Below, piece after piece: positions 1,299 to 38,645 of a stretch of 41,358 nucleotides of DNA; the stretch's first letter is position 1, and each line of letters begins with the position of its first letter. Location: NCBI GenBank assembly GCA_001777055.1, contig MFCX01000032.1, positions 1-41,358 on the forward strand, given 5' to 3'. A program made the translations under genes and the position numbers. The notes below the pieces were generated by a model that was given only the letters and a program-made list of their open reading frames with translations, made no database searches and was not told the origin of the DNA. Source of the stretch: Candidatus Daviesbacteria bacterium RIFCSPHIGHO2_02_FULL_39_12. Lineage in GTDB: Bacteria > Patescibacteriota > Microgenomatia > Daviesbacterales > UBA10151.

Positions 1299-2435
1299 AT
1301 GGTCAAAGCGGGGATTGTGGGTCTCCCGAATGTAGGGAAGTCAACATTATTTAATGCCCTTTTAAAAAAGAGGGTGGCTTTGAGCGCTAACTATCCATTT
1401 GCTACCATTGAGCCAAATATTGGGGTTGTTGCTGTGCCGGATGCCCGCCTCAGCAAGCTAGGCGAGCTGGTAAAAGAGGAGGAACATATGGATCAAATGC
1501 CTCCCCTGGTACCGGCAGTAGTCGAATTCGTCGACATTGCGGGTTTAGTTAAAGGCGCTTCAACCGGCGCAGGTTTGGGTAATCAGTTTTTATCACATAT
1601 AAGAGAGGTGGATGCTATTTTGCATGTAATCAGGGATTTTGAGGATGTTGAAGTAATTAGGGAAGGCAGTATTAGTCCTGATGAGGATAAATTGACTATA
1701 GAAATAGAATTGGGGTTGGCTGATCTGCAGACTATAGAAAAAGTTCAAAGTTCAAAGTTCCCCGGCCTCGCTCCGCGAAGCCACGCCAAAGGCGGGCGAA
1801 GCGGGGCGGGCAAAGTTCAAAGCGACAATTTAAAATTCAAAGTTTCTGCAATAGAAAAAATCAGAGTAGTCTTAAATGCAGGGCAAATGGCAAATGCAGC
1901 AAATTTAACAGATGACGAACAGGAGGTGGTTCGGGAATTACATTTACTTACACTCAAGCCAATCTTATATGCCTATAATGTTTCCGAAGCAGAGTACGCA
2001 GATAAACTGCGAGATTCTTCGTTAATCACTCAGAATGACAAGTTTGTTATATGTGCAAAGGTTGAGGAAGAGCTAGCTGATTTGACAGAGGAAGAAAGAA
2101 TTGAGTACTTAAAAGAGTTAGGAATTGAGGAGACGGGTTTGGAGAGATTAATTAAAAAGGCCTACTTTTTTTTGGGGCTAATCTCATTTTTAACAGCTGG
2201 CAAAAAAGAAGTTAGGGCTTGGACTATAAAGCGGGGAACTAAAGCTCCACAGGCTGCAGGAGTAATTCATACTGACTTTGAGAAAAAATTTATAAGAGCA
2301 GAAGTTGTAGAGTATGGCAAATTAATAGAAGCAGGCTCTCATTCGGCTGCTAAAACAAAAGGCTGGGTAAGAACTGAAGGTAAAGATTATATTATGCAAG
2401 ATGGAGATGTTGTGGAATTTTTAATTGGGAGTTAA
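1299..2435 (+). CDS. ychF: ribosome-binding ATPase YchF (Obg-like GTPase family)
   Basis: G1 motif GLPNVGKST, DIAGLVKGAS and NQFL are present. The C-terminal TGS-type region reads AWTIKRGTKAPQAAGVIHTDFEKKFIRAEV. The helical insert region carries a repeat-derived segment (see repeat 1740-1845). Confidence 0.93.
   Translation: MVKAGIVGLPNVGKSTLFNALLKKRVALSANYPFATIEPNIGVVAVPDARLSKLGELVKEEEHMDQMPPLVPAVVEFVDIAGLVKGASTGAGLGNQFLSHIREVDAILHVIRDFEDVEVIREGSISPDEDKLTIEIELGLADLQTIEKVQSSKFPGLAPRSHAKGGRSGAGKVQSDNLKFKVSAIEKIRVVLNAGQMANAANLTDDEQEVVRELHLLTLKPILYAYNVSEAEYADKLRDSSLITQNDKFVICAKVEEELADLTEEERIEYLKELGIEETGLERLIKKAYFFLGLISFLTAGKKEVRAWTIKRGTKAPQAAGVIHTDFEKKFIRAEVVEYGKLIEAGSHSAAKTKGWVRTEGKDYIMQDGDVVEFLIGS
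1740..1845. repeat. in-frame composite repeat inside ychF: AAAGTTC heptamers flanking a GC-rich imperfect palindrome
   Basis: AAAGTTC x3 (1740-1760), then cccggcctcgctccgcgaagccacgccaaaggcgggcgaagcggggcggg, then further caaagttc / aaattcaaagtt copies. It translates as KVQSSKFPGLAPRSHAKGGRSGAGKVQSDNLKFKV. The 12-mer cctcgctccgcg (1766-1777) recurs in galU at 27464-27475. Confidence 0.7.
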
Positions 2436-3445
2436 AACTTATCTTTGGGCCGGAATTGATGAGATTCAATTTCATAATATGCTCCTTTTGTTACTCCTTT
2501 TTTTCTAATAAACCCACTATTTTGTAGCTTTTTCAAATCATAACGTAAGGTTCTTTCATTTACCGCCATAAACCTTCTTCTAATTTCATCAAAACTGACT
2601 AATTTGTGATCCTCTATGATACTTAGAATCTCAGCCCTCCTTGGAAGAAGGTAGTCTACGGCTTTTGATTGTTGTTTTGCTAAAACTTCTCTTTTGCCAT
2701 CTTCTGCGCTTTTAGCAATAACTTCCAGCATAAATTCCAAATAATCAGTAGTGTCTTTTTCTGGTTCATCTAAGGATCTATAATAATTATTTCTTTCTTG
2801 GTCTAAGTATTCCTCTAGGGCAAGTAGACCCTTCATTCCATAACCGCCTTTGGCCAAGATTGCCAACAAAAGTAATCTGCCAACTCTACCATTACCATCC
2901 AAAAAGGGATGAATTTTTTCAAAAATATAATGGGCAAGACAGGCTCTTATGGGAATAAATTGCTCCTTATTACTATTTATAAACATAAATAATTTATTTA
3001 TATGGGAGATAATCTGACTTGGTTTGGGAGGTAGGTAAATAGCAATACCAGCAGTGTTAAAAATAGCACTACTTTCTGTTCTGAATTTCCCCAAATCGCT
3101 TTTTTGAACAATTTCTTCTAGTACAATTTGATGAAAATGCAAGATATCTTTGAGACTTAACTCTTTTGCACTTCTTTGATAAATCAAATTTAAGCCTTTT
3201 AAAATATTGAACACTTCTTTTTTCTTTTGATCCTGAGAGGATGTTTTAGGTAATTGATCTAAGGTTAAATCGTTTCCTTCAATACGAGCAGAAAAAAGTG
3301 AGCTTTTAAGGGTGGATTGTCTTCTGATATTCATTTCAATTTCAGGAGGGATTGAAACAGAATTGATTACTTCTTTACTTGATTCAATTGAAGCAAGGAG
3401 TTGTGAAATTTTAGGGATGAGAGTGTATTTTGGAGGAATTAACAT
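2432..3445 (-). CDS. Fic family protein (putative AMPylase) with N-terminal inhibitory helix and C-terminal wHTH
   Basis: HPFLDGNGRVGRLL matches the Fic motif HxFx(D/E)GNGRxxR. SARIEG matches the (S/T)xxxE(G/N) inhibitory motif. The basic C-terminal tail resembles a winged helix. Confidence 0.9.
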   Translation of the reverse strand: MLIPPKYTLIPKISQLLASIESSKEVINSVSIPPEIEMNIRRQSTLKSSLFSARIEGNDLTLDQLPKTSSQDQKKKEVFNILKGLNLIYQRSAKELSLKDILHFHQIVLEEIVQKSDLGKFRTESSAIFNTAGIAIYLPPKPSQIISHINKLFMFINSNKEQFIPIRACLAHYIFEKIHPFLDGNGRVGRLLLLAILAKGGYGMKGLLALEEYLDQERNNYYRSLDEPEKDTTDYLEFMLEVIAKSAEDGKREVLAKQQSKAVDYLLPRRAEILSIIEDHKLVSFDEIRRRFMAVNERTLRYDLKKLQNSGFIRKKGVTKGAYYEIESHQFRPKDKF

Positions 3446-3450
3446 TATTG

Positions 3451-3493
3451 CCTAATATTACCAAATATTTCCTAATATTACCAGATATTACCG
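3451..3493 (-). promoter_or_regulatory. direct repeats (cctaatattacca x2 plus gatattaccg) immediately upstream of the Fic start; possible promoter/operator
   Basis: On the minus strand this reads cGGTAATATctGGTAATATTAGGaaatattTGGTAATATTAGGcaataATG. It contains TAATAT -10-like hexamers. Confidence 0.3.
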
Positions 3494-3533
3494 AAAATTC
3501 TAATTTCTAAGCTTAAAATGATCTCAGTATTTT

Positions 3534-4927
3534 CTCATTGAATAATGAGCATGAAACGTCTTTTAAAAATCGATAGGTTTTAGATTAATTTTGTCAAATA
3601 ATTTAGTCTTTTCTTCATCCATGATACTAGCATATTCATTGTCAGATTGCTGCATGGAAATTTGATCAAGTTGGTTAAAAGTAATTCCTGGTTTTAAATA
3701 TTTTTTGGCATTAGGAATATTCTTTAATGCCTCATATGGGGTGAGGTAGGTTTTGTATATTTTCTTCTGTTTACCTTTAGAGTTTGTGGTAATGGTAGCA
3801 AACCCACAAGGCCTATGGAAGTTAAGATATGGGTTAAAAACCTTTAAGTAAAAGTCATTAATCTCTGGGGCATATTTCTGATGGATGTAGAAATACCCCA
3901 TGTGTTTTCTGATGATTGAGCCATTTTTGCTCTCAACTAAGGCATTGTCATTTGTTTGTCTGGCTCTGGATTTAGTCAGTCTGATTAAGAGTTTGTTTAA
4001 AAGTCGGGCTACAGTTTTGTTGATGTATTCAGAGCCGTTATCTGCATGAAACTCAATGATGATAAATGGGTATTGCTCAATGATTAACTTTAAAATTGGT
4101 TCCAGGTAGGATTCAGAGATTTGTTCCACTGAAGCAATGATTTCCCATTGAGTTATCTCATCAACTGAGTTGATGTGGTAAACACCTTTGGTATACTTTT
4201 GTCCACCAGATTGTCCTTTATCTACCAAATCTGTGGCTAAATCACCCTGATGGACAGTATCTATCCTGATATATCCGGGTTTACCTTGAGGCTCCGGTTT
4301 TGCCCTTTCTCCAATATTTCTCTGGACTGCCTGGGTGTTTTTAAAGGTTAAATTTTTAGATAAATATATTCTGGTAGTTCTTAACCGATAGATTGTGGCA
4401 ACTGAAATATGACTGATGCTTTCATACTCAGTTTTACCATATTTTTGGTACTCCCTGATTAAAATCTTCTGAGTAGCAGGACCGTTAAGTCTTTGGTGAA
4501 CATTGTCAGTTTTACACAAAAGGACAATATCCCCCGGAGAATATCTAGTTGGGAAAGAATGTCTCTCATACTCTACAAAGGCCAGCCTACCCTTTAAATA
4601 TTTAGCGATTAATCTTGAGAGTTGGGCATTTGAATAACCGGTAATCTTTTGGATATATTCCCTGACTTCTCCTCTGTCACCTTTCCTTAACTTTCTGAAA
4701 TTAAACCTCACTAAAACTTCCTTTACCCATTCATACTTTTGTTTCTTGGAACCCCCTGAAAACTTAACAGGCAGGTTTCCATTTAGGAATTTCCCCAGAG
4801 CATTAAAGTCATTTAAGTTTGTATCAATCATAGTTATATTCATAACCTATGATTTTACAAGACCTTAGCTTCTACATGCTCATCTTGTACTGGAATTACC
4901 AGTTATTTCATGCTCATCTTGTATGAG
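3534..4927 (-). mobile_element. insertion sequence carrying one DDE transposase; boundaries approximate
   Basis: A 12-bp terminal inverted repeat pairs ATGAGCATGAAA (3545-3556) with TTTCATGCTCAT (4906-4917). Both ends also carry CTCAT-N5/6-ATGAG mini-palindromes (3534-3549, 4913-4927). The right end has a 15-nt direct repeat catgctcatcttgta (4875-4889, 4909-4923). Confidence 0.5.
3563..4843 (-). CDS. DDE-type transposase/integrase (rve-like catalytic core)
   Basis: The D, D, E contexts IRIDTVHQGD ... FHADNGSEYIN ... NALVESKNGSIIRK are typical of retroviral-integrase-type cores. The N-terminal region is HTH-like. The IS family is not assigned. Confidence 0.8.
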   Translation of the reverse strand: MNITMIDTNLNDFNALGKFLNGNLPVKFSGGSKKQKYEWVKEVLVRFNFRKLRKGDRGEVREYIQKITGYSNAQLSRLIAKYLKGRLAFVEYERHSFPTRYSPGDIVLLCKTDNVHQRLNGPATQKILIREYQKYGKTEYESISHISVATIYRLRTTRIYLSKNLTFKNTQAVQRNIGERAKPEPQGKPGYIRIDTVHQGDLATDLVDKGQSGGQKYTKGVYHINSVDEITQWEIIASVEQISESYLEPILKLIIEQYPFIIIEFHADNGSEYINKTVARLLNKLLIRLTKSRARQTNDNALVESKNGSIIRKHMGYFYIHQKYAPEINDFYLKVFNPYLNFHRPCGFATITTNSKGKQKKIYKTYLTPYEALKNIPNAKKYLKPGITFNQLDQISMQQSDNEYASIMDEEKTKLFDKINLKPIDF

Positions 4928-10401: not shown

Positions 10402-11229
10402 TCAGAATAGTATTTTTAAAATCCTTTGCTTTTTGGCAAGATCAGTTTTAACTTCTACTTGAGCATCGGGGAAATATTTTAGAGCTTCGTTTATAGCCAA
10501 TTCTCCGTGAGTATAGTCAATTTCACCAACCAATAGCTTTAGGCTCAAAAGGGGACGCCTTGCAAGGCTAGAAATTTGCTTGAGGAGTTTACGGTAGAGT
10601 TCAAAGCCATCTTCGCCGCCATCTAAGGCAACACGGGGCTCAAAGTCTTTGACAGAAGATTCTAAATAAGGAATTCTAGAGGAGGGAATATAAGGTAAAT
10701 TAGTAACAATAATTATCTCCTCCTCGTTATTGCGAGCGAACCGAGTCTGACTCGGGAGCGTGGCCCGCTTCGCCCGTCTTTGACGAGGCTTCGTCTGCGA
10801 AGCGAGGCGAGCAATCTTGTTTGGATTTGTTTCTGAGCTAGATTGCTTCACTTCGTTCGCAATGACGGATAAAAGATCACTTTGGAGGAATTGGATTTGG
10901 TTCTCTACTCCATGAAGTTTGGCATTTTGTTTGGCAATTTTTAAAGCTTTTGGGGAAATATCTGTGGCAATTATCCTTAGGCGTGGAGCTAGTAAACCCC
11001 TGGGGTTAGTAATAAGGTTTTTGGCTATGGAGATAGCGATGTTGCCGGAGCCGGTGCCGAGATCAATCAGGGTATAGGGTATAGGGTATAGGGTATAGAA
11101 TTTTAACACCTCATCTACTAAAAGCTCTGTTTCCGGGCGGGGGATTAAGACATCAGGGGTGACTTTAAACTTTAGTTTATAGAATTCTATCCAGCCTTTA
11201 ATGTATTGAGAGGGCTTGGATGATGTCAT
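10402..11229 (-). CDS. prmC: release factor glutamine N5-methyltransferase PrmC (short form, with repeat-derived insert)
   Basis: SAM motif [14 protein letters not shown] and substrate motif VTNLPYIP (NPPY-type). It lies directly downstream of prfA and overlaps it by 32 nt. Confidence 0.85.
10725..10867. repeat. GC-rich palindromic repeat units inserted in frame in prmC
   Basis: Inverted ends CGTTATTGCGAGCGAA (10725-10740) and TTCGTTCGCAATGACG (10852-10867) match 14/16 as reverse complement. The interior is rich in GCGAAG/CTTCGC. The unit GTCATTGCGA..CGAAG..GCAATC is shared with pepN 25091-25122. Confidence 0.7.
11070..11097. repeat. tandem heptamer GGGTATA x4 inside prmC
   Basis: Four perfect 7-nt units, read directly. 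On the minus strand they encode YPIPYTL just N-terminal of SAM motif I. Confidence 0.9.
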
Positions 11230-12130: not shown

Positions 12131-12172
12131 AGCTAGAGATCCTTCGGCTTCGCCTCAGGATGACATGTGTAT

Positions 12173-17259: not shown

Positions 17260-17974
17260 GTTTAGCAGCAGGGGAAGATGTTTGGGCAGAAGGAGTGGCG
17301 AACCTTTTTGGTTTTAAGATTCCTCCTTGGGGAATAATGTAAGTAAAATCCGTCTCAAAGAAATTATTTTTGCCAAAACTTCCTGTTAGGATGATAAAAT
17401 TGCCTATTTTGAAATCAGCAGAATCCGGCAACGAAACAGCCATATTTTTAAAGCTACGATCTTTTAAGGTGATTATTTTATCTGAAATAGCGGCAATTTG
17501 ACCCCAAAGGTAAGTTTTAGGTCGTGAGTCGTCTGTAGGCAGCAAGATAACCTCTCTGGCTGTAAGTACTCCATTTTCATCCACATCACCCAAGGCAGCA
17601 ATATAATCTTCCTCAAAGATTACTTTGGCACTAAAATTTTTCTTTTTAACTTTAGACGCAAAATTAGTATCCTGGTTAATATTAACTATTCTTGGACCGT
17701 AATCAGTTGCTAATGTTAAAGCAGTCTCGGATTTGAGTTTGACTTGACCTACATAAGCTTTGTCTTTTAATTTTTGATCAATAACTTCTTTTAACTTGGC
17801 AGCTTTTGAGGCAATTTCTTTTTTTAATTCTTCAAGCTTAATCTTAACTTCTGCAGAAGGGGTGGAATCAGCCGCGATCGCGGTTGCAGTGTAAAGTGTA
17901 AAGTTAAAAGTTAAAAGTGTAATTGCAACAATAATTTTGAACTTTGAACTTTGAATTTTGAACTTGTTTATCAT
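17252..17974 (-). CDS. secreted hypothetical protein (240 aa)
   Basis: N-terminal signal-like segment IIVAITLLTFNFTLYTATAIA. The N-terminus is encoded by two heptamer tandem arrays. Confidence 0.6.
   Translation of the reverse strand: MINKFKIQSSKFKIIVAITLLTFNFTLYTATAIAADSTPSAEVKIKLEELKKEIASKAAKLKEVIDQKLKDKAYVGQVKLKSETALTLATDYGPRIVNINQDTNFASKVKKKNFSAKVIFEEDYIAALGDVDENGVLTAREVILLPTDDSRPKTYLWGQIAAISDKIITLKDRSFKNMAVSLPDSADFKIGNFIILTGSFGKNNFFETDFTYIIPQGGILKPKRFATPSAQTSSPAAKPK
17891..17963. repeat. two adjacent heptamer arrays (GTAAAGT x2 + TAAAAGT x2 at 17891-17918; TTTGAAC-type x4 at 17936-17963)
   Basis: Read directly. They encode the N-terminal KFKIQSSKFKI and LLTFNFTLY segments on the minus strand. 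Confidence 0.85.
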
Positions 17975-23091: not shown

Positions 23092-23212
23092 TTGGAGTTA
23101 GCTCCGATTTAATCGGAGTTAGCGAAGTCGCCGAAGGCGACTGAGCGAAGCGACACAATGCGATTAGCGAAGACCCGCGAAGCGGGGCTGAGCGACGAGG
23201 CGATACGCCGAC
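23092..23212. repeat. intergenic cluster of GC-rich mini-hairpins with GAA loops (GCGAAG family)
   Basis: ggagttagc x2, tccgatttaatcgga, gtcgccGAAggcgac and cccgcGAAgcggg are present. The AGCGAAG/GCGAAGC motif occurs four times within about 120 nt in an otherwise AT-rich context. Confidence 0.65.
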
Positions 23213-23382
23213 GAAAAATGCCTGGCTCGAACCAATGAAACAATGGATAGTGGAAGCTGCTAACGCAGCTAATATCGCAAGAGGAGATAACCTGGATGAG
23301 AAAAAGGTACTTTCTTTAAAAATCTTCGGCTCGAACAGCACACTAAAAGGCAGAAAAGTTTGTTGTGAAGCTCTGAATCAAT

Positions 23383-23403
23383 GGTCCGCCCTACGGGCGG
23401 ACC
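23383..23403 (-). terminator. 9-bp GC hairpin just 3' of tRNA-Leu
   Basis: GGTCCGCCC-tac-GGGCGGACC is a perfect stem. No U-tract follows on the minus strand. Confidence 0.3.
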
Positions 23404-23421
23404 CGCCCACTCGGGACTCTG

Positions 23422-23503
23422 TGCCGAGAGAGGGAGTCGAACCCTCATGCTTTTTGGGCACACGATTTTGAGTCGTGCGTGTCTGCCATTCCACCACCTC
23501 GGC
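23422..23503 (-). tRNA. tRNA-Leu (anticodon CAA), class II with long variable arm, CCA not encoded
   Basis: The reverse complement reads GCCGAGG-TG-GTGGAATGGCAGACAC-GCACGA-CT-CAA-AA-TCGTGT-GCCCAAAAAGCAT-GAGGG-TTCGACT-CCCTC-TCTCGGC-A. The acceptor stem has 7 bp (one G-U), the T-loop is TTCGACT, and the anticodon loop is CTCAAAA. Confidence 0.9.
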
Positions 23504-23570: not shown

Positions 23571-26171
23571 ATGAAAAGAAGCGTAAGATTACCAAGCCAT
23601 GTTAAGCCTGAGAGATACAAAATTATGCTCAAGCCTGATTTCAATGAGTTTACTTTTACGGGTATAGAAACTATTTACTTGTTGTTGGAAAAACCTACTA
23701 AACAGATTACCCTGCATGCAGTTGAATTGGAAATTGAATCAGCTGAATTTATTCATGAAAGCAAAGAAATCTGGGCTGGCAAAATTTCCTATGATTCTAA
23801 ATCCGAAACTGCCACCTTTACCTTCCCAAAGCTTTTGCCAAAGGGCAAAGGAGAATTAAAGCTACAATTTAAGGGTATTTTAAATGATAAAATGCGCGGT
23901 TTTTATAGAAGTAAATACCATCTGGCTGGTGAAGAAAAGCATTTGGCTACCAGCCAATTTGAATCAACTGATGCCAGACGTTCATTTCCTTGTTTTGATG
24001 AACCTAGCCAAAAGGCTGTTTTTGATGTGACCTTAATGGTACCAGCGCATACGACTGCCATTTCTAATACTATTGAATCAAATATTTTAGAGCATGAAAA
24101 TGGCTATAAAGTAGTTGAATTTGCGCCAACCCCCAAAATGAGTACCTATCTTTTGGCCTTCATTGTGGGGGAGTTTGAATATATTGAAGGGGAAAGCCAT
24201 GCCTGCCAGCAGGCAGGGGAAAAGGGGAAAGGGGAAAGAAAAGGACTGGTTAGAGTTTTCACAACTCCCGGAAAAAAAGACCAGGCAAGATTTGCCTTGG
24301 ATGTAGCCATTAAATGCCTGGATTTTTATGAAGATTATTTTGGAATAGATTATCCTCTACCGGTTTTAGATTTAATTGCCATTCCTGATTTTGCAGCCGG
24401 AGCCATGGAAAATTGGGGAGCTGTTACTTATAGAGAATCTACTCTTTTAATAGATGAGAAAAAATCGTCTACTGCCAATAAACAATGGGTGGCTTTAGTG
24501 ATTGCTCATGAACTGGCTCATCAGTGGTTTGGGAATTTGGTGACCATGCAATGGTGGACACACCTTTGGTTAAATGAGGGATTTGCTTCTTTTATTGAGT
24601 TTTTGGCAATTGATCATATTTTCCCGCAGTGGGAAATTTGGACTCAATTTGTCTCAACAGAATTATCAGATGCATTTGCGCTAGATTCATTAAAAAACAC
24701 TCATCCAATTGAGGTTGAGGTAGGTCATCCTACAGAAATATCTGAAATTTTTGACAAAGTTTCTTACTCGAAAGGAGCCTCTGTTTTACGTATGCTTTGG
24801 AAATATCTAGGAGAAAAAGATTTTCAAAAAGGTCTGCAGCATTATCTAAAAAGACATGCCTATGGTAATGCCCAGACTGAGGATTTATGGAAAGCTTTAG
24901 AGGAAGTAAGTGGTAAGCCAGTAGGTAAATTCATGAAAAACTGGACTTCAAAGGCAGGACACCCGGTAATAAATGTAAAAATCAAAAATCAAAAATCAAA
25001 AATAGAACTCAGACAAAGCAGGTTTTTCTCAAGCCCAATTTCCAGAAAGGAGGTTAAAGATAGGACTGTCTGGTCTATCCCGCTTTCCTTGTCATTGCGA
25101 GGAGCGAAGCGATGCGGCAATCTTTCTTATGACAAGGTTCTTCTAATGGATAAAAAGACTATGATTATTCCCAATAAGTGGGAAAAATTAAACGTTGGGG
25201 AAGTAAGTTTAGTAAGAGTAGATTATCCACATGAATATTTGAAAAAGTTTGAAGAGCAAGTGAGAACTGGAAAATTATCTGCACCAGATAGATTAGGGTT
25301 GATCAGAGACAGCTTTGATTTAGCCCAGTCCGGACAAAGTCCGACCAGCTTAGCTTTAGAACTTGCCCAAAGTTATGTAGCGGAGACAGATTACACTGTT
25401 TGGTCCGAACTAACTTCCCGTATCAGCTGGCTGGATTCACTGCTAGCCTATGAAGATTTATATAACAGTTATAAAAATTATGGTAGATATATTTATTCGG
25501 GGATAGCTCAAAAAATGGGTTGGGAGAAAAAGAAGGATGAAAAACATACAGATTCACTTTTAAGAAGTGTAGTTTTAAACATGCTTGGGAGGTTTGGAGA
25601 TAAAGAAACCATCAAAAAAGCCCAGGAATTATTTGGTAAAAGAATAGACCCTGACTTGGCTGGTGTTGTTTATAATTTAGTAGCAGAAAACGGGGGAATT
25701 AAAGAATTTAATACTTTAATTAAAATGTACAAGGCAGAAGAAAATCAGCAGGAGAAAGAAAGGATCGGCAGGTCTTTGGGCCTCTTCAAATCTAAAAGTA
25801 TTTTACAGCAAACTTTAGATTTTGCCATCTCAAAGCATGTAAGATTCCAAAATTCCTTACAAATTATTGCCTCAGTTTGGAGTAACTTTCATGGAAGGTA
25901 TTTAGCCTGGGAATTTGTAAAGGGAAATTGGAAGTTATTAAAAGAAAGATACGCGGGAGGCCATTATTTCACCAGGGTTTTCGGGCTGGCCGGAGAATTT
26001 ACCCACACGGAAGATGCCAAAAATATAGAAAAGTTTGTTGCTAAAAATCCTGTTCCTGAAGCCAAAAGGACTATAGCTCAAGCCTTAGAGCAAATTTATT
26101 CAAATGTAGAATGGTTAAAAAGGGATAGGGAAGGAATTAGAAAATTTCTCCAAAATACCAGTTCGTTATAG
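23571..26171 (+). CDS. pepN: M1-family aminopeptidase N (866 aa, with ERAP-like C-terminal helical domain)
   Basis: Exopeptidase motif AGAMENWG (GAMEN) and HELAHQWFGNLVTMQWWTHLWLNEGFA (HExxH-18-E). Confidence 0.92.
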   Translation: MKRSVRLPSHVKPERYKIMLKPDFNEFTFTGIETIYLLLEKPTKQITLHAVELEIESAEFIHESKEIWAGKISYDSKSETATFTFPKLLPKGKGELKLQFKGILNDKMRGFYRSKYHLAGEEKHLATSQFESTDARRSFPCFDEPSQKAVFDVTLMVPAHTTAISNTIESNILEHENGYKVVEFAPTPKMSTYLLAFIVGEFEYIEGESHACQQAGEKGKGERKGLVRVFTTPGKKDQARFALDVAIKCLDFYEDYFGIDYPLPVLDLIAIPDFAAGAMENWGAVTYRESTLLIDEKKSSTANKQWVALVIAHELAHQWFGNLVTMQWWTHLWLNEGFASFIEFLAIDHIFPQWEIWTQFVSTELSDAFALDSLKNTHPIEVEVGHPTEISEIFDKVSYSKGASVLRMLWKYLGEKDFQKGLQHYLKRHAYGNAQTEDLWKALEEVSGKPVGKFMKNWTSKAGHPVINVKIKNQKSKIELRQSRFFSSPISRKEVKDRTVWSIPLSLSLRGAKRCGNLSYDKVLLMDKKTMIIPNKWEKLNVGEVSLVRVDYPHEYLKKFEEQVRTGKLSAPDRLGLIRDSFDLAQSGQSPTSLALELAQSYVAETDYTVWSELTSRISWLDSLLAYEDLYNSYKNYGRYIYSGIAQKMGWEKKKDEKHTDSLLRSVVLNMLGRFGDKETIKKAQELFGKRIDPDLAGVVYNLVAENGGIKEFNTLIKMYKAEENQQEKERIGRSLGLFKSKSILQQTLDFAISKHVRFQNSLQIIASVWSNFHGRYLAWEFVKGNWKLLKERYAGGHYFTRVFGLAGEFTHTEDAKNIEKFVAKNPVPEAKRTIAQALEQIYSNVEWLKRDREGIRKFLQNTSSL
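24977..25004. repeat. tandem heptamer AAAAATC x3 plus AAAAATA inside pepN
   Basis: Read directly. It encodes KIKNQKSKIE. Confidence 0.85.
25087..25137. repeat. 51-nt palindromic GC-rich unit inserted in frame in pepN
   Basis: CCTTGTCAT (25087-25095) and ATGACAAGG (25129-25137) are perfect reverse complements. They flank tgcgaggagcgaagcgatgcggcaatctttctt. The 51 nt equal 17 codons (LSLRGAKRCGNLSYDK region). Confidence 0.75.
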
Positions 26172-26911: not shown

Positions 26912-27829
26912 ATGGTAAAGAAGATTACAAAAGCTTTAATTCCTGCAGCCGGGTTTGGAACTAGATTCCTTCCTCAAACCAAGGCCATGCCCAAGGAAAT
27001 GCTGCCAATTGTAGACAAGCCGGTTATTCAATATGTGGTGGAGGAAATAGTTGAATCAGGCATTGAAAATATTGTCATTGTCACAGGTTCCACCAAAAGA
27101 GCAATCGAAGATCATTTTGATGCTCCAAACCAGGATTTAGTTCAAAATTTAGTCAATGGCAAAAAAGATGCTTTACTTGAACAAATCAACCGTATTTCAA
27201 ATATGGCCAACTTTATTTATATTCGTCAAAAAGGGCCTTATGGTAATGGTACTCCCGTGCTTGCTGGAGAATCAGTAATAGAAGATGAGCCTTTTGCTGT
27301 TGTTTGGGGAGATGAATTTATCTATGCTGAACCTCCAAGATTAAAACAAATGATTGAGGTCCACGAGAAATACGGCGGAATTGTTATATCCGGAGTTAAG
27401 ATTGAAAAAAAGGAAGATCTAAAACGTTATGGAATAGCGGATTTAGAGCCGGTAGAAGGCTCGCCTCGCTCCGCGGGCGGAGTGGGAAATGTGTACAAAA
27501 TCAAGTCTATAGTGGAAAAACCTGAACCGGACAAAGCTCCTTCCAACATTGCCACTCATGGAGCCTATATTTTACCTCCGGAAATATTTAGCGCTTTAAA
27601 ACGTTTAACCCCGGGGCAAGGTGGAGAAATTTGGCTGGTTGATGCAATTAATCTGCTAAAAAATGAAGGAATACCGCTCTATGCGGTAGAGATTGAAAAC
27701 GGCAAATATTATGATACCGGCAATAAATTAGAATATATGAAGACAGTAGTTGAGCTGGCTAAAATTCATCCTGAAATAGGCAAAGAATTTAGCCGGTATC
27801 TTAAAGAATTAATAAGTGGTAAGTTATAA
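26912..27829 (+). CDS. galU: UTP--glucose-1-phosphate uridylyltransferase
   Basis: KALIPAAGFGTRFLPQTKAMPKEMLPIVDKPVIQY and VEKP...APSN are GalU signatures. Confidence 0.92.
   Translation: MVKKITKALIPAAGFGTRFLPQTKAMPKEMLPIVDKPVIQYVVEEIVESGIENIVIVTGSTKRAIEDHFDAPNQDLVQNLVNGKKDALLEQINRISNMANFIYIRQKGPYGNGTPVLAGESVIEDEPFAVVWGDEFIYAEPPRLKQMIEVHEKYGGIVISGVKIEKKEDLKRYGIADLEPVEGSPRSAGGVGNVYKIKSIVEKPEPDKAPSNIATHGAYILPPEIFSALKRLTPGQGGEIWLVDAINLLKNEGIPLYAVEIENGKYYDTGNKLEYMKTVVELAKIHPEIGKEFSRYLKELISGKL
27458..27487. repeat. short GC-rich palindromic segment in frame in galU
   Basis: ggctcgcctcgctccgcgggcggagtggg encodes GSPRSAGGVG in a variable loop. It contains ctccgc-gg-gcggag and the 12-mer cctcgctccgcg shared with ychF. 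Confidence 0.6.
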
Positions 27830-32358: not shown

Positions 32359-32399
32359 TCCGCTGCTTATTCCATCATGGTCATAACTTTAACCATTTG

Positions 32400-32465
32400 T
32401 CAACAGCCCTAAATTAATCCTGGTATTGGAATGCATATCTCCTTCAACCTGTATCCAGGATGGTT
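32400..32465. repeat. R1: orphan copy of the surface-protein gene 3' end (cassette boundary repeat)
   Basis: The 39-nt core at 32421-32459 differs by 1 nt from R3/R4. On the minus strand it reads WIQVEGDMHSNTRINLG, with a stop two codons upstream. Confidence 0.75.
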
Positions 32466-32476
32466 AAGATTTTATG

Positions 32477-33746: not shown

Positions 33747-33812
33747 CTTTTCCATTCTCAATTCTCCATTCTCAATTCCTATGGCGGTCCTCCGGATAGG
33801 TTAATTTTGGTA
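33747..33812. repeat. R2: partial copy (distal half) of the boundary repeat, with an internal 14-nt duplication
   Basis: ccattctcaattct-ccattctcaattcctatggcggtcctccggataggttaattttggta matches the first half of R3. The minus strand reads ...KINLSGGPP*. Confidence 0.7.
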
Positions 33813-34523: not shown

Positions 34524-34636
34524 CCTTTTCCATTCTCAATTCCTATGGCGGTCCTCCTGACAGATCAATTTTGGTATTGGAATGCATATCTCCTTCCACC
34601 TGTATCCAGGACTGCCATGGGGGGGCAATAACTGTA
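34524..34636. repeat. R3: full orphan copy of the surface-protein gene 3' end
   Basis: The 39-nt core at 34572-34610 is identical to R4. The minus strand reads PPWQSWIQVEGDMHSNTKIDLSGGPP*. There is an internal inverted repeat ATGGCGGTCCT (34545-34555) / AGGACTGCCAT (34608-34618). Confidence 0.8.
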
Positions 34637-36079: not shown

Positions 36080-36085
36080 GGTTAT

Positions 36086-36175
36086 CTGTTCTCAATTCCT
36101 AAGGTCCTCCTGATAAATCAATCCTGGTATTGGAATGCATATCTCCTTCCACCTGTATCCAGGGCTGCCATGGGG
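36086..36175. repeat. R4: boundary repeat forming the actual 3' end of the 848-aa surface-protein gene
   Basis: The core is at 36125-36163. It encodes ...SPWQPWIQVEGDMHSNTRIDLSGGP*. Confidence 0.8.
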
Positions 36176-38645
36176 AAATAACATTAAAAGTTTTAGATAC
36201 ACAGTTGTTATTCTCACTGGTTTCAGTAATGACTCTACTAGTATCAGCGCAAAAATATACAGTATGATTTCCAGCAGTAGCTGCCCTTGGGCCATATCCA
36301 TTTGCGGCCGAGCTATAATTAGTGGTTTGTCCGGCATTAAGGTACCAGTTAATATCGAAACTGGCACGTATGGCATCAATGTTAGTGGTATAGCAATTGG
36401 TTTCAGTACCTGCATCCCGACAAAAGTGGCTGTAAAAATAACCCGCATTACTTATTCCGTTATTGAGTAAGGTAGCCATAAAATATAGACTATCACCAGC
36501 ATAAATATTGCCTTCATCTGGAATAGGTGTTAACTCACTGCCTCTGTATATATTGATTGTCGGATCTGGATCAAGATCAGGAAGAGGAGCAGGAGCAATT
36601 GTAAAAGGAACTTCTCTACTGCAATTATCGGAATAACTTGTTTCAGCAAAACGATTAGTTGCATTAGCACAGATTTTAAACGCATAATTTCCAGCACTTT
36701 GCAAAGAATTGCTGTTTGTTCCATTTAAGTCATCCCATCGTTCATTTTCTTCGCCTGTTCTTTTTGTTAGATTGTCCGTAGTTTTATCAAAAGGCACTTG
36801 ATAAAATGAGGTATCGCTGCCAGTTGTTTTTTTGATATAAAGCCTGGTTATTGAACTAGGGGCATTTAATCCCCAGCCTTGTTCTTTAACAGTTCCCCAG
36901 AAACTCATATTACCGCCTAATTCAGAATTTGCAGGAGAAAAGCCGGGTTCAACAACGACCAAATTAGGAGGGCATTGCTGCGCAGAGGAAATCCAACCAC
37001 TGGATGGCGAAGAAGCTTCCCAAGCATCATCATAATTATAACCTCTAATTAGCAGAGAATGATAGGTAGCATTGTTACTAGTATTATATATTTCTAAGTC
37101 ATTATAAGCATAGCTTCTGTTAGCAGCTCCTGATATATCTGTATCATATCTACAGCCGTTGCGGGCATCTCCGGTATTATCAGTACCTCTAAAGCATTCC
37201 CGCCCTATAGCATCAGTAAAAGAAAAGTCAATCCAGGCTTTATAGTGATGGAAAGCATAGTTATTATTGTCAGATGTTGTCCAGTTAACACCAATATTCA
37301 ATCTATTATCATCATAAGGAGGCCCGCATGAAGGATTATACTCAAGAGATACAAAGTCCCCTGTTGCTCCAGTTGTGACTACACCACCTATCTGTCCAGT
37401 TCCGGGTGCCGGATTTGAAAAAGATGTGAGGCAGGTTGTTATTACTGGTGGTGATGTTGTTGGATTTACATAATCGCCATCTATGGCAGATTTAATTTTT
37501 GTCTCAAGTGTCCCATTTGACGTATATTCTACACAATTCATAGTTCTTGTTAGAGAGGTTCTAGAAGAAGGATCATTTAACATACTGCTAGTTCCATCCT
37601 TACCCAGCCTCCAACTAATCTCTGCATATGAAGGTATATTATTAATTGTGACAGTGCCAATTACATTTTTGCCAATTGGCTCATTGAGAGCATTTTTACA
37701 GTCTGTGCCGGTAGGGACTGCGGTTACCGTACAGTTGGGAGTGGTTGGTGGGGGGGCAGCAGTTAAATCTAAACTAAATTCAGTATAATGTGACACACTG
37801 TTGTCTGCGGCTGTGCCTGTAACCTTGATAGTACGGTTGCCTGTGGTAGCAGTGCTGCTGGCAGTTATAGTTAGTGTGCTGGAACAGGTATCACTAGGAG
37901 TACAGGAGGTGGGAGAAAAGGAAAATGTCACGCCGCTACCGCTTAAGGTAGAGGCAGCTAGGGAAACACTTTGGGTAGTGCCTTGACTGCGGGTTATGGA
38001 AATGCTGTTTGTGACAGATGATCCTTGCTGGACGGTTTTATCTCCACCATTACTTAAACTGAAATTAAATGGAGGGGTTATTTCAGCCCCAGTACAGTCG
38101 TTGGTAGTTGTCTGGTATATGCTCCCTGTAATAATTGCATTGCGTTCCGAATCAAAATCACGTTCATCCGGGTCAGGCCCCAGGTCTGCCTGTACCTTGC
38201 CGCAAGGGTAACCAGGGTCGCTGATATTAAAAGTAAAGCTGTTATATGGCAGCGCATTTGTCCCTGCAGCGGGAACAGTATAATTGAAAACTGTTGCATA
38301 CTGGAGGTTGTTATAATCAGTGCTATTAGGGCTACAGTCTCCTCCGGCTCTGTTCTTACACCAAAAAGCGGAAAATCTTAAATTTACATTATTGTTTGTT
38401 TCATAACCTAAATAAGAGGTACTGGTATCATATCTGCAATAACTCCCGTCAGGATTTAAAACTGTTTTAAATCCTATTCTTGCAGTCCAATTTTTACCGT
38501 TTGTGCCGGTAACACCGGGAATTGTATCTGTTGCATCATTAAACTGTCCGCATAGACCTCTCCACCCCTGATTTTCTGCATATGAAGTTTTGGGCAGAAT
38601 AAATAATAAGGTTATTAGTAATAGGAGCTTGATTATTTTTTTCAT
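36099..38645 (-). CDS. large secreted Cys-rich surface protein with Ig-like/CARDB-like repeats
   Basis: Signal peptide MKKIIKLLLLITLLFILPKTSYA. It has a Thr/Ser-rich Ig-like module (TLTITASSTATTGNRTIKVTGTA), a PPPTTP linker, and two C-terminal modules with the CARDB-like pattern (GNYAFKICANATN...SDNC; GNHTVYFCADTS...NNNC). Confidence 0.8.
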   Translation of the reverse strand: MKKIIKLLLLITLLFILPKTSYAENQGWRGLCGQFNDATDTIPGVTGTNGKNWTARIGFKTVLNPDGSYCRYDTSTSYLGYETNNNVNLRFSAFWCKNRAGGDCSPNSTDYNNLQYATVFNYTVPAAGTNALPYNSFTFNISDPGYPCGKVQADLGPDPDERDFDSERNAIITGSIYQTTTNDCTGAEITPPFNFSLSNGGDKTVQQGSSVTNSISITRSQGTTQSVSLAASTLSGSGVTFSFSPTSCTPSDTCSSTLTITASSTATTGNRTIKVTGTAADNSVSHYTEFSLDLTAAPPPTTPNCTVTAVPTGTDCKNALNEPIGKNVIGTVTINNIPSYAEISWRLGKDGTSSMLNDPSSRTSLTRTMNCVEYTSNGTLETKIKSAIDGDYVNPTTSPPVITTCLTSFSNPAPGTGQIGGVVTTGATGDFVSLEYNPSCGPPYDDNRLNIGVNWTTSDNNNYAFHHYKAWIDFSFTDAIGRECFRGTDNTGDARNGCRYDTDISGAANRSYAYNDLEIYNTSNNATYHSLLIRGYNYDDAWEASSPSSGWISSAQQCPPNLVVVEPGFSPANSELGGNMSFWGTVKEQGWGLNAPSSITRLYIKKTTGSDTSFYQVPFDKTTDNLTKRTGEENERWDDLNGTNSNSLQSAGNYAFKICANATNRFAETSYSDNCSREVPFTIAPAPLPDLDPDPTINIYRGSELTPIPDEGNIYAGDSLYFMATLLNNGISNAGYFYSHFCRDAGTETNCYTTNIDAIRASFDINWYLNAGQTTNYSSAANGYGPRAATAGNHTVYFCADTSRVITETSENNNCVSKTFNVISPWQPWIQVEGDMHSNTRIDLSGGP

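Follow-up and report, generated by a model that had tools for sequence, protein, structure and literature searches.

The prmC gene of Candidatus Daviesbacteria bacterium RIFCSPHIGHO2_02_FULL_39_12, a member of the candidate phyla radiation (CPR), contains an in-frame, GC-rich insert of 141 nt (47 aa; positions 10725-10867, minus strand) that is very probably a gene-less inverted dimer of hairpins from the CGTC/TGTC-tagged repetitive extragenic palindrome (REP) superfamily, equivalent to the Ssn-related motifs (SRMs). The two tagged hairpin units face each other with their tags outward. The window referred to throughout is the complete stretch of DNA analyzed, positions 1 to 41,358 of contig MFCX01000032.1. 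Its prmC gene (10402-11229, minus strand; open reading frame (ORF) of 275 aa) encodes a release-factor glutamine methyltransferase: the product matched PrmC/HemK in the Protein Data Bank (PDB) with an E value of 8e-27, carries methyltransferase Pfam domains and has Ca. Daviesbacteria homologues named PrmC. An earlier interpretation made from the letters alone, hereafter the sequence-only reading, had noted about 140 nt of GC-rich sequence in prmC and attributed it to a family of REP type or of transposable elements of the miniature inverted-repeat class (MITEs) tolerated inside essential coding sequences. Both statements held: the frame is open, the peptide quoted for the segment was correct, and the family recurs both inside genes and in intergenic sequence, not only in the window but also at 36 of the 80 related loci, with copies inside ORFs keeping the reading frame.

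The insert differs from its surroundings in composition, with a GC content of 0.55-0.56 in 100-nt windows over 10700-10849 versus 0.39 for the whole window. Its ends, CGTTATTGCGAGCGAA (10725-10740) and TTCGTTCGCAATGACG (10852-10867), are inverted copies of each other over 16 nt (88% complementary), as had been described, and a second inverted pair lies further inside (10796-10817 and 10840-10861; 22 nt, 73% complementary). Within PrmC, the fourth beta-strand and the NLPY motif enclose the variable loop that carries the insert; there, 57-65 residues stand in place of the 16-25 found in solved PrmC/HemK structures, while both sides of the segment align. Most of the best 120 PrmC proteins in a Daviesbacteria alignment carry no insert, and the basal length of the loop is 11 aa, as determined from the 71 of 80 species-level Daviesbacteria genomes with an extractable loop (nine loci were unresolved); roughly 400 Daviesbacteria genomes hold prmC. 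As the insert is missing from most orthologues and from the solved structures, we rejected the possibility of an ancestral segment, and the lineage-specific origin suggested previously stands. An assembly artefact was rejected as well, because the same 275-aa PrmC and the same unit were found on contigs from independent samples.

The whole dimer folded strongly both as single-stranded DNA (ssDNA; -34.4 kcal/mol, z -4.6) and as RNA (z -3.95). In an AlphaFold model of PrmC computed with 37 orthologues, the mean predicted local distance difference test score (pLDDT) was 82; insert residues ~131-170 scored 51-61 and the flanking blocks 81-96. The insert was modelled as a low-confidence excursion between the strand at 112-116 and the strand at 171-177, the latter of which precedes NLPY. 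Its predicted peptide of about 47 aa would end in ...RFARNN. Presumably, transcription and translation of the gene include the insert, which would form a hydrophilic, disordered loop on the surface of the tolerant enzyme.

To define the family, we took a census of 80 related Daviesbacteria loci (designated L plus a number) and the window, 1.36 Mb in all. The unit pattern GTC + AT + NNN...N'N'N' + AT + C gave 159 matches compared to 26 in the reversed-sequence control, with other 5-mer heads giving 22-69. Six main stem types account for 122 of the 159 matches: TGC (34), CCT (32), TCC (26), TCT (18), CCC (8) and CGC (4). When the tag, loop motif and ATC were fixed and pairing was left free, all 25 copies obtained, representing five types, had complementary stem triplets. 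Conversely, when pairing was required and the tag left free, the preceding four bases were TGTC (25) or CGTC (1) in 26 out of 26 copies. What is conserved is therefore a hairpin with a one-sided tag. A single unit comprises a (C/T)GTC tag that stays unpaired, then a stem opening with AT, a loop and a brief tail led by C. It is this tagged AT-stem hairpin that defines the family; the GCGAAG core is just a frequent loop sequence. Units are mostly found in convergent pairs in which a plus-strand unit precedes a minus-strand one, with their tags on the outside and 3-60 nt between them, and the two halves often belong to different subfamilies (for example, in L006, L015 and L048). Within the window, the pattern was matched 4 times versus 0.7 expected, a count reached in 2 out of 300 simulations, and the core GCGAAGCG occurred 6 times versus 0.29 expected, with none of 100 shuffles reaching 6. 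A global 8-mer enrichment over the 1.36 Mb mainly picked up codon-usage words (such as GCCGGAGG) and told nothing about the repeat. Peptide motifs mentioned in the sequence-only reading (SLRGAKR.., IA..) do occur in other Daviesbacteria proteins.

Applied to prmC, this scheme resolves the insert into two units and a spacer. The left unit A (10841-10867, minus strand), recovered by the regular-expression census, consists of a CGTC tag, an ATTGC stem, the loop GAACGAAGTGAA and GCAAT-C; it matched the TGC-subfamily model with an nhmmer E value of 0.007 and has two mismatches to GTCATTGCGAGCGAAGCGAAGCAATC, where 0 such sites are expected by chance. A spacer of 23 nt (10818-10840, minus strand) separates it from the right unit B (10725-10817, plus strand), which has a degenerate CGTT tag and an expanded loop of ~77 nt between ATTGC (10729-10733) and GCAAT-C (10811-10816), and gave only a partial nhmmer match (10729-10746). 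Nested in this loop are a small predicted hairpin, CCGAGTC-T-GACTCGG (10741-10755, plus strand), and a GCGAAG-rich module of 30 nt (10764-10793, minus strand). The module recurs in inverted orientation in ychF (1776-1805; 30 nt, 90% identical), in line with the recurrence claimed for ychF 1761-1811, and 29 nt at its core reappear with 100% identity inside a TCT-type unit of L034 (20583-20611), a locus whose PrmC is only 53% identical to that of the window.

The same dimer lies at the same place in the loci L087 and L088, with PrmC proteins 66% and 60% identical to the one studied here, so that at least three related lineages of Daviesbacteria have inherited it. In these relatives, the unit B loops measure 17-19 nt between the same GATTGC and CGCAATGAC frames; the dimer is therefore an inheritance of this sub-lineage, and its expanded loop is peculiar to the window genome. 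Unit A is identical to its orthologous units in L087 and L088 at 25/27 and 24/27 positions, respectively, compared to 17/24 for the spacer and 67-73% for the rest of the gene.

Further copies were found elsewhere in the window, bringing the number of tagged units to five in 41 kb, with two more, canonical units with GTCATTCCCGC stems, just outside in the 8-kb left flank of the same genome. A TGC-type unit with a TGTC tag lies in pepN (GTCATTGCGAGGAGCGAAGCGATGCGGCAATC; 25091-25122, plus strand; nhmmer E 9e-6), as had been noted, and is translated as SLSLRGAKRCGNLS; it falls into a loop that varies among solved M1 aminopeptidases and adds only ~4 net residues. The rpmE-prfA spacer holds a CCT-type unit with a TGTC tag (GTCATCCTGAGGCGAAGCCGAAGGATC; 12138-12164, minus strand; nhmmer E 1e-4). 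Here, the sequence-only reading had correctly picked out a related GC-rich segment (12131-12172), which contains a tagged unit, and had been mistaken in describing it as devoid of the core, since GCGAAGC is present on the minus strand. A TCT-type unit with a TGTC tag in ychF (GTCATTCTGAGTGATTAACGAAGAATC; 2013-2039, minus strand; nhmmer E 1e-3), with the antisense reading RDSSLITQNDK, had been overlooked. The same gene carries a tag-less, GC-rich, in-frame loop module of 51 nt (PGLAPRSHAKGGRSGAG; 1761-1811, plus strand), which adds ~14 residues relative to Haemophilus influenzae YchF, is unique among 50 YchF orthologues and is flanked by copies of an AAAGTTC heptamer repeat.

Two other proposed sites fared less well. 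Around 23092-23212, intergenic GCGAAG cores had been reported, and 4 of the 15 GCGAAG sites of the window do lie within a GCGAAG-rich array at 23114-23216 (plus strand) that contains two GAAG-loop hairpins (TCGCC/GGCGA and CCCGC/GCGGG). The array has no tag and may be related to the family; the one ORF that covers it, of 122 aa, lacks support and matched no family. In galU, a GC-rich extra segment of 9 aa (27454-27482, plus strand) is complementary to prmC 10789-10817 over 29 nt at 79%, so that the reported recurrence survives as a weak match. It has no tag and no nhmmer match, a 9-residue gap is present at this point in Bacillus subtilis YngB, and its membership in the family is doubtful. Given only 4 and 9 extra residues relative to solved structures, the pepN and galU segments are not convincing insertions on this evidence.

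Across the 80 loci and the window, 65 of the 122 main-subfamily units (53%) are intragenic when ORFs of 150 aa or more are taken as genes. As such ORFs make up 83% of the sequence, genes hold fewer units than their share, though they are far from free of them. The intragenic units are more often antisense than sense to their host gene (43 versus 22), an excess that places the Ssn-cleavable tagged strand on the template strand. Among antisense units, the ...ATGAC end is read as xAT GAC (encoding ND or DD) in 39 cases, as ATG ACx (MT) in 4 and in the TGA-containing frame in 0; sense units use all three frames (9, 5 and 8), all of them open. That none of the 65 intragenic units is in the TGA frame and all are open is expected only if they are translated.

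Positions, too, are shared between genomes. At the same place in PrmC, 13 loci carry related GC-rich inserts of differing sequence types: VIARS...IASS..PRND (L049, L016, L007, L043), half units reading DCRALRARNDK (L002, L003, L004), CHSERSEESL...DPSLITQDD (L015, L040), VIPANAGIQ...DPRLRGDD (L006, L048) and other types (L014, L056). The DNA of all 13 starts with GTCAT and/or finishes with ATGAC. Units also lie just inside the prmC N-terminus (L014, L016, L064, L065), and dimers were found ~950-1200 nt upstream of prmC (L009, L015, L040, L044, L061, L065), where they would occupy the rpmE-prfA spacer if gene order is kept. In the same line, ychF carries units of different subfamilies ahead of its VICAK motif in L004, L031, L048, L064, L065, L074 and the window. 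Duplicated tag remnants in L049 (...TCGCAATGAC AGAGGGGA TCGCAATGAC) and L048 (GGGAATGAC...GGGAATGAT) suggest repeated insertion beside a resident tag. Neither the 13 filled loci nor the alignment of the window with L087 and L088 revealed a consistent target duplication at prmC, and no closely related empty site was found.

Such recurrent occupation could also mean that the units are functional elements selected by the host rather than selfish DNA, their presence in coding loops being kept by selection. They might then serve as Ssn cleavage sites by which replacement of the flanked genes by transforming ssDNA is restricted, in the manner of the NTS repeats and their nuclease SsnA in Neisseria meningitidis, or as mRNA hairpins acting on stability or translation pausing. 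CPR bacteria are likely to depend on DNA uptake. The left unit of the prmC dimer is more conserved (89-93%) than the spacer (71%) and the host gene (67-73%), genomes whose PrmC proteins share only 50-65% identity have units at the same positions, and the bias of intragenic units in orientation (43:22) and antisense frame (39:4:0) is strong. In Neisseria, moreover, NTS/SsnA modulates transformation (PMC11893778). However, none of the sites can be required, since most orthologues are without an element there; from genome to genome, one and the same site varies freely in its subfamily, number of units and loop content; the single units of the window are thermodynamically weak hairpins; and the higher conservation of the unit would follow equally from concerted evolution or recent copying. 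We therefore consider host-selected function unlikely.

Two other kinds of short repeat were observed. Heptanucleotide tandem repeats of 3-5 copies (AAAGTTC, AGGGTAT, AGTGTAA, TTTGAAC, AGGGGAA, AAAAATC, ATTCTCA) occur at 1740-1760 (ychF), 11069-11098 (prmC), 17888-17922, 17936-17965, 24215-24238 and 24977-25003 (both pepN) and 33754-33778. Several are intragenic and in frame, including the one in prmC, which encodes a peptide there; peptides similar to it (LNYTLNPIPYTL, LNCNLLPVTCNL) fill the prmC hot-spot loop in many orthologues. A second, tag-less palindrome family, CCTGCC(A/G)GCAGGCAGG, is present in several genomes and translated in frame, with sites in pepN of the window (24200-24218) and in L064 (17343-17362), L074 (7840-7858), L068 (8167-8189) and L057 (7082-7100); in the prmC loop of L030, it reads PACRQAG.

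The tagged hairpins are tied to a nuclease gene. Ssn proteins are single-domain GIY-YIG nucleases of ~95-105 aa that are homologous to Neisseria meningitidis SsnA (cd10448; Chenal et al. 2025, Nat Commun 16:2388; PMC11893778). Only one GIY-YIG gene was detected in the 80 loci (1.3 Mb), at 1388-1705 of L069. It has TGTCATCCTGAACTTGTTTCAGGATC ~5 nt upstream of its ATG and an inverted unit, GATGCCGAAACAAGTTCGGCATGAC, over its stop codon. Four further distinct CPR ssn loci have the same outward-tagged inverted units, making 5 out of 5 with L069; in L069, L090, L091/L092 and L093 alike, a TGTCAT hairpin precedes the start codon by 10-20 nt, and an inverted unit lies at the stop codon or beyond it. 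From these flanking units, it follows that CPR ssn resides inside the same outward-tagged dimer that, gene-less, forms the prmC insert. A CPR GIY-YIG protein of 105 aa (P0121, not window-encoded) had PF01541 as its sole detected domain. The L069 protein has 1771 homologues. Of the top 120, 64 have the translated 3' unit as their C-terminus (DAETSSA, DPETSSG, DAEINSA or similar), their stop codon being the TGA of ATGAC, and in several Ssn homologues the 5' unit is translated as VILNLFQDL. NCBIfam and PDB searches with the CPR Ssn homologue returned no specific family and no solved structure.

Searched by tblastn, the CPR protein gave a single match in two N. gonorrhoeae chromosomes (47% identity over residues 10-96, E 5e-19), and the orthologous ORF is flanked there by NTS repeats (CGTCATTCCCGC...GCGGGAATC). 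Both complete chromosomes (including L089, NZ_CP119140.1, 2.17 Mb) are filed as 'plasmids' in PLSDB, with the ssnA orthologue unannotated. We had considered the GIY-YIG link as a new idea and dropped it, as the association with Ssn is already contained in PMC11893778.

These loci also bear on whether the units are ordinary MITEs or GTAG REPINs moved in trans by a DDE transposase or an IS200/IS605-like RAYT, with the GIY-YIG gene being incidental. The inverted-dimer architecture is indeed that of REPINs and BIMEs, and REP-RAYT systems act on ssDNA hairpins beside a conserved tag (PMC3733652, PMC11893778). Nevertheless, the tag is (C/T)GTC and not GTAG in 26 out of 26 copies, no consistent target-site duplication is visible at prmC, Di Nocera et al. 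linked no transposase to CGTC REPs (PMC3733652), and units stand at fixed distances from start and stop codons in 5 out of 5 CPR loci with ssn and in 64 of the 120 homologues of Ssn; although no search aimed at RAYT genes was made in the loci, this reading is highly improbable.

An Rfam search at the gathering threshold and at E values up to 1 detected tRNA-Leu only and no intron or other family; the units thus correspond to no curated RNA family. CPR genomes can carry intervening sequences in rRNA genes, the prmC dimer is strongly structured as RNA, and the insert interrupts an essential enzyme beside its catalytic motif. Still, we regard it as extremely improbable that an intron- or intein-like intervening sequence is removed to leave a mature PrmC without the insert, given the absence of any Rfam match, a length of 141 nt that is far under the size of self-splicing introns, the lack of intein motifs, the 65 frame-open intragenic units with none in the TGA frame, and the in vivo expression of RPE-1-decorated Rickettsia proteins, as far as cited in PMC3733652.

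In the tagged-REP explanation, which we favor, the units would spread as selfish DNA. The agent may be the small GIY-YIG single-strand nuclease Ssn, whose Neisseria and Wolbachia representatives bind such hairpins and cut ssDNA just 5' of the tag. Empty dimers such as the one in prmC would be miniature derivatives of an SRM-ssn-SRM cassette, because CPR ssn lies inside the same outward-tagged dimer, and occupied sites may be re-targeted or converted, which would give rise to hot spots with different subfamilies, heterodimers and duplicated tag remnants. Going one step further, we tentatively propose that Ssn-associated hairpins of CPR bacteria might actively retarget themselves and supply essential proteins with lineage-specific inserts, with new units arriving at resident tags and colonized loops staying hot spots. 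If so, a colonized surface loop would cycle through subfamilies, heterodimers and nested loop modules.

Several observations weigh against the tagged-REP assignment or its proposed mechanism. The boundaries of the insertion and any target duplication are not definable, as the nearest empty sites are in genomes that are only ~60% identical. Translation of the insert is suggested by reading frames. Neither the window nor ~14 kb of additional flanks from the same genome (~8 kb and ~6 kb) contains an ssn gene, and the tags around Neisseria ssnA point inward, whereas those around CPR ssn point outward. Transposition by Ssn has never been shown and was raised as a hypothesis only (PMC11893778). Taken singly, the window's units do not fold better than shuffled sequences as ssDNA (z -1.2 to +0.4), with a perfect stem of only 5 bp compared to the 8-9 bp of the published families. 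Finally, the published SRM pattern, HGTCWYN(0-2)YYVSBRHN(0-5)WNVSBRGN(0-2)RNCYNB (PMC11893778), matched nowhere in the window and at just 8 sites across the 80 loci. Seven of these 8 are obvious NTS-like units, and the reversed control gave 2. With 0 matches, the window copies cannot be filed as SRMs by this pattern, and their assignment uses anatomy and sister-genome copies instead.

For the annotation of CPR genomes, the units have practical consequences: they yield spurious 'hypothetical protein' motifs (VIASEAKQS, RFARND, DPSLRSG, EILKQVQDD), make lineage-specific inserts in CPR proteins seem more numerous than they are and can mislead alignments and structure models. At the same time, they represent a data set for testing Ssn-mediated mobility. 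If the proposal holds, filled and empty sites together with SRM-ssn-SRM cassettes make Daviesbacteria metagenomes a natural test of whether Ssn mobilizes DNA, a question left unresolved by both the 2013 and the 2025 paper (PMC3733652, PMC11893778).

The window holds three other repeat features. Three small gene modules (AAA_14 ATPase; Gp49/HTH; AbiEii/AbiEi) are each followed by a repeat of 50-95 nt, with copies at 32399-32471, 33762-33812, 34526-34622 and 36082-36175, the two best of which are 93% identical. The last copy overlaps the 3' end of an 848-aa ORF (36099-38645, minus strand), and the arrangement looks like tandem cassette accretion at that end, with each module re-creating the target. 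Between the ORFs at 2432-3445 and 3563-4843, about five tandem 10-nt units (TATTACCAAA / TATTGCCTAA; 3446-3495) could be iteron-like or regulatory. A GC-rich perfect hairpin, GGTCCGCCC-TAC-GGGCGGACC (23385-23405), ~15-20 nt from the end of a tRNA-Leu gene (23421-23503, minus strand), may be a terminator or another palindromic insert.

Among known systems, the closest are the CGTC-tagged REPs (Di Nocera, De Gregorio & Rocco 2013, BMC Genomics 14:522; PMC3733652). These have an unpaired CGTC/TGTC tag (variant CCTC), an A-T-started stem of 8-9 bp, a loop of 4-5 nt and a short tail with the consensus CCA; they mostly form inverted dimers, heterodimers being common, include in-frame intragenic copies and have no dedicated transposase. 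The units described here agree in their tags (CGTC in unit A; TGTC in pepN, the spacer and ychF 2013-2039; degenerate CGTT in unit B), in stems that start with ATTGC, ATCCT or ATTCT and end with GCAAT, AGGAT or AGAAT, in inverted dimers that include heterodimers or hybrids with variable or structured spacers and a short C-led tail, in in-frame intragenic copies encoding 20-80 aa, and in that no transposase was found nearby, with no search aimed at RAYT genes. They differ in having 5 perfect pairs followed by a GA-rich interior of 12-22 nt, in nested modules that expand the loop to ~77 nt (unit B), in their CPR host (PMC3733652 lists Proteobacteria, Chlorobi, Bacteroidetes, Spirochaetes and Thermotogae) and in that about half are intragenic, compared to mostly intergenic copies in the species of Di Nocera et al. 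(PMC3733652). The stem of 8-9 bp with a loop of 4-5 nt is present in sister-genome and left-flank copies, for example ATTCCCGC-GGAG-GCGGGAAT. Unit tails read C and then mostly T (CTCT, CTCG, CTCA, CTAG), and a CCA/CTA tail in perfect-stem copies is implied by TGG/TAG on the other strand.

In the Ssn system, NTS (CGTCATTCCCGCGMAVGCGGGAATCYRG) and related motifs flank ssnA, which encodes a single-domain GIY-YIG protein of 94 aa. SsnA binds the single-stranded DNA form of the hairpin and cleaves just one of the strands, upstream of the tag, the NTS-ssnA-NTS layout has been likened to an insertion sequence, and binding and cleavage were demonstrated for Neisseria and Wolbachia proteins only (PMC11893778); CPR go unmentioned in that paper. 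Sister-genome copies in L064 and L065 (GTCATTCCCGCGAAAGCGGGAATC) are identical to the NTS core CGTCATTCCCGCGMAVGCGGGAATC, and CPR genomes likewise have a single-domain GIY-YIG gene, for 94-105 aa, with hairpins on both sides. One difference lies in location, with 53% of units being intragenic here versus 2% of NTS in N. meningitidis (PMC11893778).

The Rickettsia palindromic elements, or 'protein-coding palindromes' (Ogata et al. 2000, 2002, as cited in PMC3733652), are similar in being in-frame palindromes in conserved, often essential genes of a reduced-genome symbiont, missing from orthologues and expected at protein surfaces. They differ in phylum and unit sequences, and in that one loop holds different subfamilies in different genomes here; the link between the two runs through Di Nocera et al., who equated Neisseria dRS3 and Rickettsia RPE-4 and RPE-6 with CGTC-tagged REPs (RPE-4 being CGTC-4 and RPE-6 CGTC-1; PMC3733652). 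With REPIN/BIME elements and RAYTs (Bertels & Rainey 2011, PMC3116915), the units share doublets of tagged hairpins in inverted arrangement, a flanked gene, present in single copy, as presumed mobilizer and a presumed action on ssDNA. Unlike these, they have a GTC tag instead of GTAG and a GIY-YIG nuclease instead of a tyrosine HUH transposase, and REPINs are extragenic.

A literature search for the literal unit GTCATTGCGAG returned unrelated primer matches only, and one for palindromic elements plus CPR returned nothing relevant. The element itself is already described, the tagged REPs having been catalogued in 2013 and the partner nuclease Ssn characterized in 2025. Relative to these studies, the novelty is modest and consists of the CPR host, the high intragenic load with its frame and orientation bias, and the nested loop modules. 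Also new are the escape of the commonest subfamilies from the published search pattern and the recurrent occupation of the same PrmC and YchF loops, and apparently of the rpmE-prfA spacer, by different subfamilies.

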